A stretch of 64,000 nucleotides of DNA from IMG/VR virus record IMGVR_UViG_3300006924_000006; one strand, written 5' to 3'. The translations under genes were made by a program, and so were the position numbers. Of this stretch, positions 14,703-48,165 are shown one piece after another. Numbering within the stretch: position 1 is the stretch's first letter; each line of letters starts with the position of its first letter. The DNA comes from an uncultured virus (IMG/VR IMGVR_UViG_3300006924_000006) (taxonomy: Duplodnaviria; Heunggongvirae; Uroviricota; Caudoviricetes). Under the pieces are notes generated by a model, which made no database searches, had not been told where the DNA came from, and saw only the letters and a list, made by a program, of their open reading frames with translations.

Positions 14703-17700
14703 TCACCTAGTCGTAAATTTTATAGAACTTTCTCCATTGACTTTCGTTATATCAATTATGTTATCAAACTTCTCTTTCAAAGATTCGTCATGGGTTATTA
14801 CCAGTATCTTGTACTTATCTTCTAGAGCCTTAATTACGTTAACAAAAAGAGTCTCAACTCCATAACGATCAAGAGGAGAATTAACCTCATCAAGGAGCAA
14901 GAACTCAAGCGAAGAGCCTCCGTATCTAGAGGACATATCACTTAAGCCTATTCTGAGCGCAAGTGATATCCGGAACTTCTCCCCTCCGCTTAGAGACTTA
15001 AAGCTTTGTAGGTGTCCATCCTTCTGTACCTTTAAGTCCAAGGTTTCTATGGTAGAAACTCCGTCTGAACCGACCCGCTGTGTCTCTAAGACTATAGATG
15101 CTGGCTCGTTGCAAATTGAGGACAAAATTACGTTTGAAGTCTTCTCTAAATCTTCAATAATTGTATCTAAAAGAACTGCTTGTATCCCATTTTTTCCAAA
15201 CATCTTGGCAAGCTTATCAAAGGTTGATACTGCGGCCATCTTCTTAGCTATGCTCTTTTTGTCCTCTGACATCTTCTTAAGCTTAGCAGACAGAGTGCTT
15301 TCTCTTTCGAGTAATCGTCCAATACTCACATTCTCTTTGGAAATATTCTCTAGCAACACAGACAACTCTGCTCTAAAGATTTTTAGGTTTTTTCTGATAG
15401 CCTGAAAGTCTTCATTCTTGATTGATTCTAGTTGAGATTTATTTCTTTTTAGACGATCAGCCGCCTCCACTGCGGCAATCTCCGCAGCGCTCAACTCTTG
15501 TTTGTACTGCGCTATATTCTTTTTCAAAATTGACAGCTTATGGTTTTCTATCTCTAATTTTTCTCTCGCCTTTAGGATCTTGACATTTTCAGCCTTTGTT
15601 TTGAGCAAAGCATTTAGGGCATCTTCTGTGTTTCGCAATTCTCTTATAGCCACACTATTTCTCTCGGAGTACGTCCCTCTCTTGCAGAGGATATCTTTCT
15701 TTAGAGAATCATACAGCTCTTGGTCAATATCTTGACTGCAAACATAGCAACGATCTTGAGCTATCTCTATATCGTCTAAGCTTCTAATCAGCTCCTGTGA
15801 AGAGGCTTTCTCAACTTTATAAAAGGATAGTTCGCTAGTTAGATCCTCTACTTTTAGCTCGTCAACTTCCTCAAGGACCTTTTCCTTGAGGTATAGCTCC
15901 AGCTTTCCGGCTAAGACCAGAATTGGAGCTTCTTCTGTCTCTAGATCAAAAATTCTCTTCTTACAATCTGTCACCTGTCCTAGCAGCCTTCCTCTCTTTT
16001 CATTGAGGATTAAAATTTCCTCAGTTGCCTTATCATAGGCGTCCGTATCAAGGCTGCTCTTTAGTTTTGAGTACTTGACCTCCAATGAAGAGATATCTTT
16101 GGAGTAGGCGCTCCTCTTAGACTGAAGCTCTCCTACCCTTTCCTTTGACTGGCTGACATTAAGGCGTACGTCTTCCAGCTCTTCGAATGTTACATCATAA
16201 TCTTCTACGGATTTCTTTAGAATCTTGCATTCCATAGAAAGCTCTTTGGCCTTCTTCTTGGCCTCCTTTTCGTAAGAGTCCCATCTTGATACATCAACTA
16301 TTGATTTTAAAATCTCTTTTTTCCTAGAGGCCTCTACTTCTGCAAACTCAGAGATATCATTCTGCCGAAAGTAAATAGAGTTCACAAAGGTCTTGTGATC
16401 AAGCCTAATAGTCTCTTCTATTTTCTTGTTGGTACTGCCAGATGTTGAGCCAGACTTATCGATCCAATCGCCAGCCTTATCTAGGCAATGTAGCTCAACT
16501 TCTGACGTTGAGTTTACTCTATTTCTAGTTCTCTTTACCCTGTAAACTTTGTCTTCATGCTTGAATTCCATAGCAACAGAACAGATCGACTCTCCCCATC
16601 GAATAATGTCATCCATCATAGCTGATCTGGACTTATTAAATAGGCACCACAGTATACCCTCAAAGATAACCGAGTTATGGGTTATGAATCCATTTAACGC
16701 ATACAGTTTTGTATGATTGTCTATCTGTATATCATATGTTTGCTCATCAGGAATCTCTTTTATTGCCTTGACCTTGTCCCAATATATATCGGCATTTGAT
16801 AGGGCAGTTAGTCTATCGCTCTTCATGAAGGCGGCATATTTGCCAAGCTTGCTTCTTGACATGTTTTTGTTACGAATTTGACTTCTCGACAAATTAAACC
16901 TATCCCTATTCCCATAAAAAGCACCAGACTTAATGCTCTCCTGTATTTCATCCCGGAATAAGCTCGAAGGGACTACGTCCTTATTCGGATTTCCACGAAT
17001 AGATTGAATTTTCTTTCTCATAGCCAATAGCCTAGCCTTCTTTGGACCGTAAACGTGTCCCTCTACTAAGTCGAAAAACCTATCGAAGTTGCCGGCCTCG
17101 GTGTGCAAAGACAGGGTCCAAGAATTATGTTTTTTAGCAATTAGCTTGCGCCTAACCGTACCTGTCACCCCAAATCTCAGCAACAGACTCTGTATATCAT
17201 ATGCTAGTTGCCGAGATTCAAGTCTAAAAGATACCTCTCGACTCTTTTCGGTGTTCGCAATGTATCCATCGCCAGAAAAAAACATTCCCAAAAAAGCGCC
17301 AACATTTTCTTTGCTTTCAGAAAAGAATATTGTGGGTAAAGTTTTGTCAATCGCCTTCTTCCCCATAAGATTATATTTTTTGAAGAAATCTCTAGAGGCC
17401 CTAGCTGAAGACAAAGACTTTGCGGCTCTCGTTATAATGGGATCATTAAACGATAGCAGCTTATCATAATTTAGCGCATGTTGAAGCGCCTTTATTCTAC
17501 TCCAGTTATTTGGAGACATTTCTTCTAAAGAGATTCCGAGCTCTTGCATTCTCTTCAAAATAGCCGCCCCATTTCCCCTTCTGTCATTGGCTGATGTTAT
17601 CGTATACGTTAGCTCCTGCTTGCTAAGCGCTCCTCCAAAGATGTCCTTTACGTCTTTCCTTGCTACTTCAACGATCTCTTCATCTGCATTTGTAAACTTC

Positions 17701-18227
17701 GGAGACATGCCCGTCAGGCCGCCTTCTGCGGCGAACAAACCAAGCAGTCTAGCCTCAGGAGCCTCAAGGGTTGTCTTCGGACAGATAACTCCAAGGCTTC
17801 TTGGTGTTGCAACAAAGTCTCCTTCCGTAAGAAGTGAGGCCTTCTTACAGTTTAGGTCATCAGATAAAATTGGATGTGTTTTAGAAACACGCTCAGAAAT
17901 GCCAGAGACCATAGTCACTTCTAGCATACTCTTTACTCCAGATACCTGAGTCGCAACAACTTTGGCTGGCCTCAGCTTGAGATCTTCGTCAAGGCCCCAT
18001 ACATAAAAATCCCGAAAATTTTCATGCAGTTCTTTTACAGAAGTTTTTTCTCCGGTATATGCGTCTGTCAATATGGTGTTGCCAGACAAGCACTTCCCTG
18101 AGCCATTACTTTTCGTATAATCACCCTCTGTATTTCCAATTAAAAGAGCAGAATTAAATTTCGTGAAATCAATTTCGCTTTCTGAATGTGAAAAGAAATT
18201 TATCATCTTTATATTAAGAGGAATCAT
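14703..18227 (-). CDS. sbcC: SbcC/Rad50 (gp46-like) SMC ATPase containing an intein
   Basis: Walker A NGSGK|S split by intein, Q-loop FRQND, coiled coil with CYVC zinc hook, LSGGE signature, LLLDE Walker B, ITH. Confidence 0.93.
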   Translation of the reverse strand: MIPLNIKMINFFSHSESEIDFTKFNSALLIGNTEGDYTKSNGSGKCLSGNTILTDAYTGEKTSVKELHENFRDFYVWGLDEDLKLRPAKVVATQVSGVKSMLEVTMVSGISERVSKTHPILSDDLNCKKASLLTEGDFVATPRSLGVICPKTTLEAPEARLLGLFAAEGGLTGMSPKFTNADEEIVEVARKDVKDIFGGALSKQELTYTITSANDRRGNGAAILKRMQELGISLEEMSPNNWSRIKALQHALNYDKLLSFNDPIITRAAKSLSSARASRDFFKKYNLMGKKAIDKTLPTIFFSESKENVGAFLGMFFSGDGYIANTEKSREVSFRLESRQLAYDIQSLLLRFGVTGTVRRKLIAKKHNSWTLSLHTEAGNFDRFFDLVEGHVYGPKKARLLAMRKKIQSIRGNPNKDVVPSSLFRDEIQESIKSGAFYGNRDRFNLSRSQIRNKNMSRSKLGKYAAFMKSDRLTALSNADIYWDKVKAIKEIPDEQTYDIQIDNHTKLYALNGFITHNSVIFEGILWCLFNKSRSAMMDDIIRWGESICSVAMEFKHEDKVYRVKRTRNRVNSTSEVELHCLDKAGDWIDKSGSTSGSTNKKIEETIRLDHKTFVNSIYFRQNDISEFAEVEASRKKEILKSIVDVSRWDSYEKEAKKKAKELSMECKILKKSVEDYDVTFEELEDVRLNVSQSKERVGELQSKRSAYSKDISSLEVKYSKLKSSLDTDAYDKATEEILILNEKRGRLLGQVTDCKKRIFDLETEEAPILVLAGKLELYLKEKVLEEVDELKVEDLTSELSFYKVEKASSQELIRSLDDIEIAQDRCYVCSQDIDQELYDSLKKDILCKRGTYSERNSVAIRELRNTEDALNALLKTKAENVKILKAREKLEIENHKLSILKKNIAQYKQELSAAEIAAVEAADRLKRNKSQLESIKNEDFQAIRKNLKIFRAELSVLLENISKENVSIGRLLERESTLSAKLKKMSEDKKSIAKKMAAVSTFDKLAKMFGKNGIQAVLLDTIIEDLEKTSNVILSSICNEPASIVLETQRVGSDGVSTIETLDLKVQKDGHLQSFKSLSGGEKFRISLALRIGLSDMSSRYGGSSLEFLLLDEVNSPLDRYGVETLFVNVIKALEDKYKILVITHDESLKEKFDNIIDITKVNGESSIKFTTR
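16674..18092 (-). mobile_element. Intein with LAGLIDADG homing endonuclease (473 aa)
   Basis: Begins CLSGNT after GSGK, ends GFITHN before Ser; block B SKTHP, block F TYDIQI; LLGLFAAEG and FLGMFFSGDG motifs. Confidence 0.95.
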
Positions 18228-19393
18228 GCGTCTCCCATAATTATCTTAGCCTCTTTTAATAAGAGTTTTTGATATGCATCCTCAATTCCTTGTGACTTTG
18301 CAAAGGCCTCAAACATAGAGAAATCATCTTTGTGATTGAGTATTCCGATATCCCGAACTGTTCTCTTGGTTATAATTTCGACCAAAACCTTTGAAACATA
18401 AAAGGCTCCGTTGTCATAAAGCTTCGACTGAATAGCCTTCCGATCAACTGCAGGGGCAACCTTTTCGTCTATAGTAACCTTGAATCTTACGATTCTATCT
18501 TCTACGTCATACGCTTCTACTGCGTCGTCAAGAGCTTTTGTAATTCCCGAAAAATCATGCCCAGTTAGATCATAGGAAATATCCAGCAGATTGCGTACCG
18601 GTATTTTGCAAAATTTTGCTCTCTTTTTCTCAACGTTATAATCTATGAAATATTTCTCAATATTGGAATCTCCGAAATTAGACTTTTCCATAGAACCTGT
18701 ATATATACAGACCGGAGAGCTTTTTCTTAAGACTCTAAACTGATGCACATGACCCATCATAGCGACATCGCACCCAGCAAAGGCCAAGGGTTTTGCCATA
18801 ATCTCTGAGCCGCCGTAGTTATTATAACTTCCTTCGTAAAAGAAGTTGTGCCCCACAGCTATAATCGGTATATCCTGCTCACATGTTTCGATCAAAGATC
18901 GAACTTCTGCGTCATACCCCCCTGACTGCTCTGCAGTAGTCTTTCCGGGATACATCCTTTTGTCTCTATACGGAAGCAACAGTAGATTGACTCTTTTGTT
19001 GTCCTTATTGGAGACCTGAATTACATCTGGATTGAGAACCATGCGAACATTAGGGTACTCACAGGCTCCAAGAGAAGAGATAGAGCTTGTAAAGTTATCT
19101 CCGCTTCTCTTGTAGTCATGATTTCCCATTAAAATGAACGACGCAATATTTGCGTTTGAAAGCTTCTTCAGGGCCCGATCTACAATTCCCATGTGCTCCG
19201 GTTCCGGATCCCTAAACTCAAACATATCTCCTGTTTGAATGAAGATTTCAGCCTTTGTTTCGATTGCATGGTCAACTACATAGTTGAGGCTTCTCTCATA
19301 GTCGTCCACTCTTGTGTTACCGCCCTTTCCATTCGACCTTCCTAGGCCAAATACTGCGCCGATATGCACATCTCCACATACTATAGCTCTCAT
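18224..19393 (-). CDS. sbcD: SbcD/Mre11 (gp47-like) metallophosphoesterase nuclease
   Basis: GDVHIG, TGDMF, GNHD, GH, GHVH motifs; adjacent to sbcC. Confidence 0.92.
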   Translation of the reverse strand: MRAIVCGDVHIGAVFGLGRSNGKGGNTRVDDYERSLNYVVDHAIETKAEIFIQTGDMFEFRDPEPEHMGIVDRALKKLSNANIASFILMGNHDYKRSGDNFTSSISSLGACEYPNVRMVLNPDVIQVSNKDNKRVNLLLLPYRDKRMYPGKTTAEQSGGYDAEVRSLIETCEQDIPIIAVGHNFFYEGSYNNYGGSEIMAKPLAFAGCDVAMMGHVHQFRVLRKSSPVCIYTGSMEKSNFGDSNIEKYFIDYNVEKKRAKFCKIPVRNLLDISYDLTGHDFSGITKALDDAVEAYDVEDRIVRFKVTIDEKVAPAVDRKAIQSKLYDNGAFYVSKVLVEIITKRTVRDIGILNHKDDFSMFEAFAKSQGIEDAYQKLLLKEAKIIMGDA

Positions 19394-28210: not shown

Positions 28211-28886
28211 TTATATTGTAATTTCACCTTTGACGAACCTACTTAGCTTTTGAGTTTTTCCGGTTCGATGATCGGTCACCTTGTCTCGCTGAACTTGATA
28301 AGTCCTTATCTTATCTCCTCTCATTCCAGAGCCAACCTGAGAGGCTCTCAGCTCAGACCTTCGTCTGCTGGCTGCGCTCCTTTCGATCTCATATAGCTTA
28401 GCTCGAAGAAGCCTTAGAGCATAGTCTTTGTTCAAGTGTTGTGAACGCTCTGATTCGCATCGAATGCTTATTTGTGTTGGAATATGTTTCAGCTGAACGG
28501 CAGAGTCAGTTACATTTCTATGCTGCCCGCCCGCTCCAGATCCACGGCAAGTCTTCCACTCAAGGTCTTTCTTGTCGATCTTTACTGATGCTCTTTTTGG
28601 CTCTGTTAGAATTGCAACCGTTATAGTCGAAGTGTGAACTCTGCCTCGTTTGTCAAGGGGAGAAACTCTTTGCCAGCGATGGCCTCCTGCTTCTTTCTCA
28701 AAGATCTTTAAAGCGTTCTTTCCTTCGATCAAAGCTATGCTAATTCCTGGGCGTGATTCTATTATTTTCAGGCTAAAGATAATTTCGGCGGCAGACCTTG
28801 CCGTAAATGCCGAGTTGATCTTTAACAAGAAGTTTGCTTTCTTTTCCGCCTTCAGCGGCTCTAATCTCTAATATAATAGAATTCAT
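28211..28886 (-). CDS. Class I peptide chain release factor lacking domain 1, expressed via a +1 frameshift at CTT TAG C (about 224 aa)
   Basis: SD plus ATG at 28886 gives MNSIILEIRAAEGGKES...RNYL then TAG; the +1 frame continues SLKIIE...EAGGHRWQRVSPLDKRGRVHTS...GAGGQHRNVTDSAV...ERSQHLN...KIRTY...VTDHR. Confidence 0.85.
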
Positions 28887-28906
28887 CTTCCTTTTCTCCT
28901 TTATAT

Positions 28907-29491
28907 TTATTCTGGCTTAACTCCAGAGGCTAATGCTATTTTGCAAATATGCTCTAGCCTTTCTATGTGACAAAATGCTTCCCACGGGTTTTTCCCAATA
29001 GCACAAGCTCCATGCGCAGTTTGGCCAACAATATCATAATAGACCTCTCCATTACGTTGCATTTGAAAAAATGTATCATCTGCCAAGCCTTTACTTGTCG
29101 CCTCCCAAAGTCCTACATTCTTCCCAACTTTTGTATAGCGATATACTTCCGGAAACTTCTTTGCTAATGCCTGCAGATTCCACCCTGCCATCATCGCTGC
29201 AACAATATAGGTTGGATGCAGATGAAGCACGCATCTCGTTCCCTTGTGACTCTTCTGCAAAAGCCAATGCATCTCTAGCTCTCCAGAGGCATTCTTATTC
29301 AGGCCAAGCTTTCCTCTGGAAATTGGAATTCTAAGAATAGATTCTGGATAAATGATATTCTTTCTAACTCCAGACGGAGTTATGTAGAGAGTTTTTTTCT
29401 CTGACCTCTTTAAAGAGCAGTTCCCGTCCTTGGTAGTTATCCAGTTTCTATCGTATGCCTCTCGCATAACATCGCCAATAGCAGTTAACAT
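28907..29491 (-). CDS. Class II aldolase/adducin-family protein
   Basis: DGNCS, ITPSG, SGELEMH, HLHPTY, HG motifs. Confidence 0.88.
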   Translation of the reverse strand: MLTAIGDVMREAYDRNWITTKDGNCSLKRSEKKTLYITPSGVRKNIIYPESILRIPISRGKLGLNKNASGELEMHWLLQKSHKGTRCVLHLHPTYIVAAMMAGWNLQALAKKFPEVYRYTKVGKNVGLWEATSKGLADDTFFQMQRNGEVYYDIVGQTAHGACAIGKNPWEAFCHIERLEHICKIALASGVKPE

Positions 29492-47134: not shown

Positions 47135-48165
47135 CTACACTTCCTTCGGGGAATAAGAATACACAATATCCTCAATTAAAATACAATTAGCGTTTATCAC
47201 TTCTGTTATAAAATCACACATAATGTTTAAGCTTGAGAAGGATCGAATTAGACCTTCATGAATAAGCTTAAACTTTCCAAACTCTTTTAAGATATCACAC
47301 TTGCTAATAACTAAATTAGTTGTTCCCGTAAGATTAACTGCCTTAACCAGATAGTCGAGATTCAGCCAATTAACCTTTCTTGGCCTTCCTGTCGTTACTC
47401 CAAACTCTTCTCCCATTTTAGCGATTACAGACAAGTCCTTATCTTCAAGCAAACTGCTTGGAAATCTCGGATCTTCCCCAGACTTCGTATCATATATCTT
47501 TGCAGCGCCCCAAATCGCATTAACCCTCTGAGGCGGAAACCCCAGAGAGCAAGCGCCATAAGGCAGGGTGATAGAAGAAGTTACATAAGGATAAAGGCCA
47601 TGATCAATATCAAGCCAAACGCCCTGCGCTCCTTCACACAAAAGCCTTCCCTCTAACTTCTCATCCCAAATATATTTCGGATCCAATACATCTTTTGCCA
47701 AGATTCCAATTCTAGCCGCTTTATCCGCATAGCAAGGGGCTATTCCCCTGCCCGTAGTTCCAAGCCTTGGAGCCAAATGCTCCTTATCATAGGCTATTTG
47801 AGAATCAGTTACGATATGACATTTTGGAGAAACCTTGATCAGCGTAGTATCAAATCCATTTTTATCCAAGTAAGAAACCTCTTCTTCAAAGGAGCTTGGA
47901 TGCAAGATGCACCCAGGGCCAATAACAGAAGTTACTCCATAAAATACACCAGATGGAATTAAGTGAGTTTTATACTTTTCTCCATCGACCCATACGGTGT
48001 GTCCTGCGTTATTACCCCCTGCCCATCTTGCCACAACATCATAGTTGCCACTACTCGCCAGATGTGCAGTAATCTTTCCTTTTGCTTCGTCACCTTTTTA
48101 TGTTGAGATTGACCCGAAGGTCAACCCCAGCATAAACCGACGACAATATCTGCCTTATCGATCAT
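47135..48165 (-). CDS. purA: Adenylosuccinate synthetase (short type, about 332 aa) split by a 32-nt coding gap
   Basis: SD plus ATG at 48165 gives MIDKADIVVGLCWG, then gap, then DEAKGK...RWAGGNNAGHT, GTTGRGI.P.Y.DK, EGAQG..LDIDHG.YPYVTSS, EFGVTTGRPR. Confidence 0.9.
48092..48126 (-). other. Putative translational bypassing (ribosome hop) element
   Basis: GGT TGA CC-TTCG-GGTCAATCT CAACATAAAAA GGT: matched take-off and landing codons, stop codon, UUCG hairpin. Confidence 0.8.

Follow-up and report, generated by a model that had tools for sequence, protein, structure and literature searches.

Release-factor genes interrupted by a stop codon

In bacteria, prfB is the textbook case of a gene gauging its own product through a frameshift. 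As described in PMC12421855, its site has the arrangement SD-N3-CUU_UGA_C, with a Shine-Dalgarno (SD) element 3 nt before CUU. In that 2025 survey of 8,164 prfB motifs TGA accounts for 98.6% of the stops, TAA for 1.4% and TAG for none, which its authors take as the signature of self-regulation, and the same account reports no programmed frameshift for prfA in 12,753 genomes. The locus studied here lies in a 64,000-nt stretch (the window) of the uncultured virus record IMGVR_UViG_3300006924_000006. It resembles prfB in being a class-I release factor gene with CUU directly before an in-frame stop and C after the stop; a further likeness, the GGAGG placed 3 nt before CUU, is found in the consensus of its family but not in the window. 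It differs from prfB in that its protein is RF1-like and not an RF2, in that its site falls at codon 37/38 in domain 2 whereas that of E. coli prfB is at codon 26, and in that its stop is TAG, with all three stops being used across the family of short factors to which it belongs. The location in domain 2, away from the prfB position, argues that the site arose independently of prfB; judged from the sequence, the device appears to work like prfB, as a convergent counterpart and not as a member.

The closest viral parallel is found in Mimivirus and Megavirus, whose eRF1-type factor is recoded (Jeudy et al. 2012, PMC3521657); that paper, in the parts available, describes it as a virus-encoded termination factor with recoding at internal stops and a bacterial-type autoregulation reading. 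Those proteins are, however, eRF1 homologues (eukaryotic/archaeal-type) from amoeba viruses whose genes combine a frameshift with readthrough, whereas the window has a bacterial-type RF1-like factor in a phage and a single +1 shift. PrfH (RFH, paired with RtcB2) also does without domain 1 and keeps GGQ (PMC1586002, in part), but it matches the window protein weakly, flanking genes are varied and the phage's own 211-kb record shows no RtcB; the available part of PMC1586002 describes no frameshift for prfH. Canonical RF1 (prfA) is the best match over domains 2-4, including the GGHRxQR...GRxHTS decoding region and GGQ, yet the window factor lacks domain 1 and has SPL for PxT, and full-length RF1 forms its own clade. 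Finally, Lak, Agate and Jade phages (Borges et al., 10.1101/2021.08.26.457843) and the huge phages with RF1/RF2 (PMC7162821) are, in the accessible portions of these papers, likewise large phages with class-I release factor genes, but the stop-recoded phages differ from the window phage, which uses the standard code. The word 'frameshift' is absent from the accessible texts of both papers, term look-up in the available parts of PMC5009743, PMC7824862 and PMC6514570 found no description of such a frameshift, and our search of the open-access literature returned no paper on frameshifting in a phage release-factor gene or a short RF1-like gene.

Gene layout, protein identity and genomic setting

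The gene is encoded on the minus strand (Table 1). ORF1, MNSIILEIRAAEGGKESKLLVKDQLGIYGKVCRRNYL, holds the start of domain 2 with the EIRAAEGG motif and has the slippery Leu codon CTT as its last codon, while ORF2 comprises the remaining part of domain 2 together with domains 3-4 (Pfam RF-1, 3.1e-33; PCRF, 1.3e-10). When T 28775 is skipped, translation runs on as SLKIIESRPG... via GGQ to the TAA stop, and the joined product (P0001) has 224 aa. The coordinates given in the first-pass annotation are all correct, and its claim that the GGQ-containing remainder joins in the +1 frame without loss is borne out by the alignment to Thermotoga maritima RF1, in which query residues 4-221 correspond to RF1 88-312, unbroken over the junction. 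Similarly, the Pfam PCRF profile flanks the break colinearly (100-132 before it, 154-194 after it), with the RF-1 domain behind. The same annotation had located the site within domain 2 rather than at the prfB position, which stands, with the correction that the protein has no domain 1 whatever, as the RF1 match starts only at residue 88.

Table 1. Positions of the elements of the release factor gene, counted from the first nucleotide of the window
Feature	Position	Strand	Remarks
Shine-Dalgarno-like run AAAGGAG ... AAGGAAG	28887..28902	-	ahead of ATG 28886-28884; read directly
ORF1, frame 0, 37 codons from ATG 28886	28776..28886	-	Pfam PCRF profile 100-132, E 3.5e-4
Putative frameshift site CTT_TAG_C	28772..28778	-	slippery CTT_T 28778-28775 (CTT 28778-28776), in-frame TAG 28775-28773, C 28772
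ORF2, +1 frame, 187 codons, AGC 28774 (Ser38) to last sense codon	28214..28774	-	
Codon-recognition tripeptide position Ser75-Pro76-Leu77 (SPL)	28655..28663	-	RF1 = PxT, RF2 = SPF
GGQ peptidyl-tRNA hydrolysis motif G119 G120 Q121	28523..28531	-	invariant in alignments A1 and A2
TAA stop of the full-length product	28211..28213	-	

The 12 nt 5' of CTT (CGC CGA AAT TAT) contain no SD-like run (GGAG, GAGG, AGGG, GGGG and AGGA were searched). Rfam gave no match over 28400-29100 at E-values up to 1, and the predicted fold of the 141 nt surrounding the site is no more stable than those of shuffled sequences (z -0.99); a small upstream hairpin in the fold predicted for the window is, by eye, not kept in the relative L004.

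P0001 combines GGQ within an RF-1 domain with PCRF, the features of a class-I bacterial release factor. Among the NCBIfam models it scores highest with prfA (228 bits), followed by prfB (165) and prfH (97), every one of them below its cut-off: 227.8 bits against 400 for the prfA model NF001859, of which only profile positions 105-331 of 347 are covered, 165 against 370 for the prfB model TIGR00020 and 96.8 against 166.65 for the PrfH model TIGR03072. The matches to structures in the PDB fall in the same order (T. maritima RF1, 4.9e-49; RF2, 1.7e-33; PrfH, 7sa4, 8.5e-16). The gene is accordingly closest to prfA in these scores, and it is predicted to encode an RF1-like class-I release factor without domain 1, a domain reported in the available part of PMC1586002 to be dispensable for codon recognition and peptide release. 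We rejected a PrfH/RtcB identity on the sub-threshold TIGR03072 score and on the lack of any RtcB match across the phage's own 211-kb record, which is itself 63% complete.

The tripeptide at residues 75-77 is SPL and does not conform to the PxT of RF1 (RF1 PxT and RF2 SPF are the motif names used in PMC5776981, where, in the part available, the tripeptide alone is not what sets stop specificity). L004 has SPT and most relatives PPT, with PPN, PPS, PPG, PET, PKT, PST, APN and SPG found in others, and the RF1-type Gln in GGHRWQR is kept in the window factor. A Ser at the first position is said, from the work of Ito et al. in 2000 and from structures of release factors on the ribosome, to be the RF2 state, and Gln the RF1 state. 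It is conceivable that the pairing of SPL with an RF1-type Gln gives the window factor a relaxed or altered stop specificity. Leu37, encoded by the slippery codon, aligns to the conserved Trp of the 'GW' in RF1; in our prokaryote genome scan the RF1 genes of Spiroplasma have TGA at this same residue, which we take to be read as Trp.

The window gene is flanked by a class II aldolase-like gene and a DUF3310 gene (Pfam); genes for Hsp20 and a KhpA-type KH protein also adjoin it. More broadly, the window (286-63983) has the gene content of a jumbo phage, with many cell-like functions. The products encoded include Pol III alpha, a sigma-70-like factor, a Cas4-like nuclease, an FtsK-like ATPase, GMP reductase/IMPDH, ThyX, a glutamine-synthetase-like protein, an RlaP-type nucleotidyltransferase, ClpP, GroEL, an M16 peptidase, a PP-loop (TilS-like) enzyme and a SpoU methylase. 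Two further genes in the window are interrupted. An SbcC/SMC-type ATPase gene (14706-18227, minus strand) is split by an intein that includes a LAGLIDADG endonuclease domain (Pfam Intein_splicing, LAGLIDADG_3, SMC_N) and adjoins a gene for an SbcD-like phosphoesterase (18227-19393). A purA gene (47138-48164, minus strand; PF00709, 3.4e-70) has an SD and ATG 48164 followed by 14 codons ending ...TGG GGT and then TGA; the P-loop GDEAKGK resumes 29 nt on in another frame, right after a second GGT, and this second frame has a TAA just upstream and no start codon. This break looks like a gene-60-style translational bypass (take-off GGT, landing GGT), another form of recoding or a tiny intron.

Distribution and conservation of the site

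To delineate the family, we assembled a viral set of 83 rows, consisting of 80 loci from a profile scan of IMG/VR together with L001, L002 and the window, and a bacterial set of 80 loci from a scan of one genome per prokaryote species. The frameshift is found in 56 of the viral rows (TGA 41, TAG 12, TAA 3), and with L009 dropped the remaining 55 represent 52 distinct proteins; a further 14 rows have an in-frame TGA and two an in-frame TAG that would need readthrough, nine were scored as uninterrupted (L041, L044 and L077 of these start after the site) and two were left unclassified. At this codon the top phage-database match, LR745208.1 from an uncultured huge phage of 485 kb, reads GGT CTT TGA C. 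Among the bacterial loci 34 are frameshifted (TGA 22, TAG 11, TAA 1), mostly from Myxococcota, with examples on the fully assembled chromosomes of Archangium gephyra (TAG) and Minicystis rosea (TGA); the remaining loci comprise 33 full-length RF1 genes with domain 1, eight with an in-frame TGA and five that start after the site. Metagenomes contributed four frameshifted loci out of ten (three TAG, one TGA), among them a new TAG relative, L176. In each of the resulting 94 frameshifted rows (TGA 64, TAG 26, TAA 4), CTT and the stop occupy the identical codon, exactly 31 residues after the E of EIRAAEGG. The CTT-stop core that the first-pass annotation had singled out is therefore conserved throughout, with C as the following base in 36 of the 52 distinct viral genes (G 12, A 3, T 1), as in the window. 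On inspection, L044 (CTT TAA C) and L011 carry the site too, and so do three of the five bacterial loci scored as starting after it, L131 and L166 at the family codon and L112, as CTT TGA C, at a point eight residues downstream; six extra rows in all show CTT-stop in this manner, five at the family codon and L112 beyond it.

The same annotation had proposed an independently evolved switch; this holds with respect to prfB, given the different position, but not as an invention of this phage or of UAG, as 94 rows share the break and 64 of them have TGA. Within the family, UAG appears to be one interchangeable variant and not a unique invention. At the 34 bacterial loci no conserved neighbours were seen among the 49 of 93 flanking ORFs scanned (short ORFs and those overlapping the gene being left out), the flanks being ordinary, varied genes; therefore, this is also a chromosomal gene and not phage cargo alone. 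In a FastTree analysis of 147 rows full-length RF1 forms one clade (support 100) with the short factors outside it, and phage and Myxococcota short-factor rows are intermixed; both this and a quick IQ-TREE tree are midpoint-rooted and poorly resolved at depth. The device is dispensable, because of the best 120 among 7,989 database relatives 43 are single ORFs that span 95% or more of P0001; the other 77 of these 120 cover 74-91%, which corresponds to ORF2 alone. The frameshift is unannotated among the database relatives seen, which bear source names such as 'peptide chain release factor 1' (JGI) or 'peptide chain release factor-like protein' (NCBI, for an ORF2-only product).

The nucleotides around the site are conserved beyond what the protein demands. 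In a codon-usage test on 88 distinct frameshifted genes, the slippery Leu is CTT in all 88, whereas CTT makes up 11% of the other Leu codons of the same genes. Arg is encoded by AGG in 46 of 47 cases at position -2 (198 of 2,272 elsewhere) and by CGG in 58 of 69 cases at position -3 (429 of 2,272 elsewhere); the Fisher p-values of 8e-46 and 3e-30 ignore relatedness and are hence overstated, yet the effect is large. The resulting consensus, CGG AGG NNN CTT, places GGAGG 3 nt before CTT. Such nucleotide-level selection in 88 genes argues for a programmed site and against decay. An internal SD is present in 47 of the 56 viral and 23 of the 34 bacterial frameshifted rows, so that the absence noted in the first-pass annotation is right for the window but does not extend to the family, whose consensus has GGAGG at the prfB spacing; the window and L004 belong to the SD-less minority (9/56 viral, 11/34 bacterial). 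With no internal SD, the yield in the window is probably lower than in most relatives. As a separate observation, the SD-less L025, L087, L124, L131, L135, L143, L146, L151 and L169 have CAC (CAT in L146) two codons before CTT, mostly inside CCAC (e.g., CAC CAC GGT CTT). We also considered whether Leu at this residue is forced by the slippery codon, four uninterrupted viral relatives having F/W there, and dropped the idea, as many uninterrupted relatives also have Leu.

Several relatives depart from this pattern. L012 (IMGVR_UViG_3300037067_027616) has TAT TAG A and L082 (IMGVR_UViG_3300044957_000763) has CTC TGA C at the position of the frameshift stop (~1600 in each locus), and both genes stay open in frame 0 beyond it. 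Each has as its partner in the quick tree a +1 gene with the same stop (L051, L065), which looks as if one site had switched between frameshifting and either readthrough or recoding. The phage short factors of a separate clade (L002, L046, L055, L056, L062, L070, L072, L076, L079, L083-L086 and L088) have an in-frame TGA (one TAG) at various codons and no frameshift; thus, in these the RF1-like factor gene is itself written in the recoded alphabet, while the code-change genes of Jade phages are described as standard-coded in the available part of 10.1101/2021.08.26.457843. L011 and L174, of the L004/L010 lineage, have CTT TAG C plus a second frame break downstream near GGCGG, which may be an assembly error or a sign of a decayed copy.

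Readings of the break and of its stop codon

The break in the window could be accounted for without a programmed frameshift in several ways. The TAG might be read as an amino acid (e.g., under code 15), so that readthrough would take the place of a shift; large phages are known to recode stops (10.1101/2021.08.26.457843, in part), and the relatives with in-frame TGA (14 rows) or TAG (2 rows) occur in other phages. Against this, 94% of the 211,453-bp record (42% G+C, estimated 63% complete) is occupied by code-11 ORFs of 70 aa or more, which end in TAA 104, TAG 76 and TGA 46 times (n=226), with similar use in the window (TAA 31, TAG 27, TGA 16; n=74, 72 of the 74 ORFs being on the minus strand), and the seven tRNAs in the record, none of which lies in the window, include no suppressor. 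As TAG is a frequent terminator and no suppressor tRNA accompanies it, UAG is a genuine stop here. Moreover, frame 0 past the TAG has no similarity to release factors and meets another TAG 10 codons on and then TGA; with the standard code and homology in the +1 frame only, the gene needs a shift and not readthrough, and we regard amino-acid decoding of the TAG as barely credible. A pseudogene, or an extra T introduced by assembly or sequencing, is highly improbable too, although a single extra base in a T run, which the first-pass annotation had flagged for checking, is a common type of error and in one relative (L011 and L174) the frame is broken a second time downstream. Over 3,673 nt around the gene, the contigs L009 (IMG/VR) and L171 (a 214-kb metagenome contig) share 100% identity with the window, the 1,523-nt contig L172 from another data set matches at 1,522 of its 1,523 nt, and eight marine-metagenome runs contain the entire stretch (of the 17 runs matching it, none is RNA). 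Logan contigs of the runs X1 (word depth ~1,254) and X4 (9,961 nt, depth 12) show no differences and no indels at the site, though their runs are possible source samples and weak as independent support. The same break, moreover, recurs in 88 distinct genes down to ~40% protein identity, with frames otherwise open and conserved. Nor are the close homologues uniformly in frame, an outcome that would have told against the first-pass reading: the L004/L010 relative, with 73% DNA identity over 1,010 nt and 77% protein identity, has AAC TCT CTT TAG C at the same codon. The heptamer CTTTAGC occurs 62 times on the two strands of the record and TAG followed by C ends 13 of the 76 TAG-terminated ORFs of the phage; being so common, the motif and its stop context are not exceptional, and the weight rests instead on the two-sided homology and on conservation.

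A third possibility is that ORF2 is translated alone from an internal start in the +1 frame (e.g., TTG 28828), with ORF1 being a small peptide or a remnant. Gene callers do read the gene in this way: the ORF listing gives a 205-aa TTG ORF, and ORF2-only products exist in databases (P0005; the 77 of the best 120 relatives covering 74-91%). However, ORF1 is intact with EIRAAEGG and its own strong SD in every frameshifted row, no SD is seen before TTG 28828, the +1-frame residues upstream of the site lack similarity to release factors and uninterrupted relatives have both parts in one chain, all of which makes an internal start very unlikely. The window site is, on the conservation described above, very probably one of programmed +1 frameshifting, and an RF1-like factor without domain 1 made by such a frameshift is likely to be the best explanation overall. 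In the mechanism we propose, a Leu-tRNA would sit on CUU in the P site with UAG in the A site; most ribosomes would terminate and release the 37-aa peptide, while in a fraction of them the tRNA would slip onto UUU, after which AGC (Ser38) would be decoded and the whole factor made. Since termination and slipping would be rivals for the same A site, slow UAG termination should increase the yield; this would apply when host RF1 is scarce or, if the phage factor itself reads UAG, when the phage factor is scarce. The gene would then act as a sensor of termination capacity in a phage in which about a third of the genes end in TAG. That the capacity for UAG termination influences the yield is, in our view, slightly more likely than not; genuine self-feedback by way of the phage factor seems doubtful.

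The stop codon itself allows for a different interpretation, in which the programmed +1 site is a fixed attenuator that holds a factor harmful in excess at a constant low yield, the UAG being accidental and neither RF1 sensing nor self-feedback being involved. Consistent with this, the stop type differs between sister genes in the FastTree (L125 TAG vs L127 TGA; L117 TAG vs L139 TGA) and has no link to the tripeptide (PPT occurs with TGA 26, TAG 7 and TAA 2 times in viruses, and with TGA 8 and TAG 6 times in bacteria), to the share of TAG among flanking genes (0.29 at TGA sites vs 0.31 at TAG sites, in a test on crude ORFs from at most 3.7 kb per locus) or to G+C, which does not differ. With the stop type toggling and unlinked to tripeptide and flanks, UAG may be incidental and not a specific RF1 sensor. 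Likewise, the genetic code ties the stop and the base after it to residue 38 (TGA to D/E, TAG to S/R, TAA to N/K), a position that varies in uninterrupted relatives; the window has no SD; and overexpression of release factors is reported to be harmful in B. subtilis (PMC12421855, in part). On the other hand, with a single shared A site some dependence on release factors is hard to avoid, as the prfB mechanism set out in the available part of PMC12421855 implies, and a weak ribosome-binding site would be a simpler route to low yield, yet the SD, the CTT and the weak stop context are kept in most members. A fixed attenuator is, on this evidence, possible but the less probable course. As far as sequences go, strict self-recognition throughout the family is made less likely by the RF1-type loops that accompany UGA sites. 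Three readings can be put forward: factors that decode every one of the three stops, a site that reflects the activity of whichever host factor recognises its stop, or a stop that serves just as a slow codon keeping the yield low. Among these readings of the stop the termination-capacity sensor is favoured, because slipping and termination compete at one A site, and a UAG-coupled supply of extra factor would be a sensible reading, as a third of the ORFs of this phage end in TAG.

The cassette of SD, CUU, stop and C would thus have arisen at another position and in another release-factor lineage than in prfB, in huge phages and Myxococcota and with three stops, and it provides a natural experiment on what is sensed by the stop of a frameshift site of this kind. 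It also points to an unstudied class of short RF1-like factors, which are named in databases from their second frame alone. More speculatively, and we hold this only tentatively, the short factors of huge phages and Myxococcota may be a second, independent frameshift-gated family whose sensor codon can be UGA, UAG or UAA, with the window site being a sensor of RF1/UAG load. If true, the freedom of the sensor codon would stem from a factor that reads all three stops, for which relaxed decoding would be in keeping with the variable loop (SPL together with an RF1-type Gln in the window factor), or from a gene that reports general termination capacity. Whenever UAG termination fell behind during infection, CUU_UAG_C would then replenish a factor devoid of domain 1, which is the part reported to cooperate with RF3. 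The site might also serve as a ready-made UAG-responsive translational switch for recoded hosts, and it bears on how giant phages terminate translation under the load of their own TAG stops.
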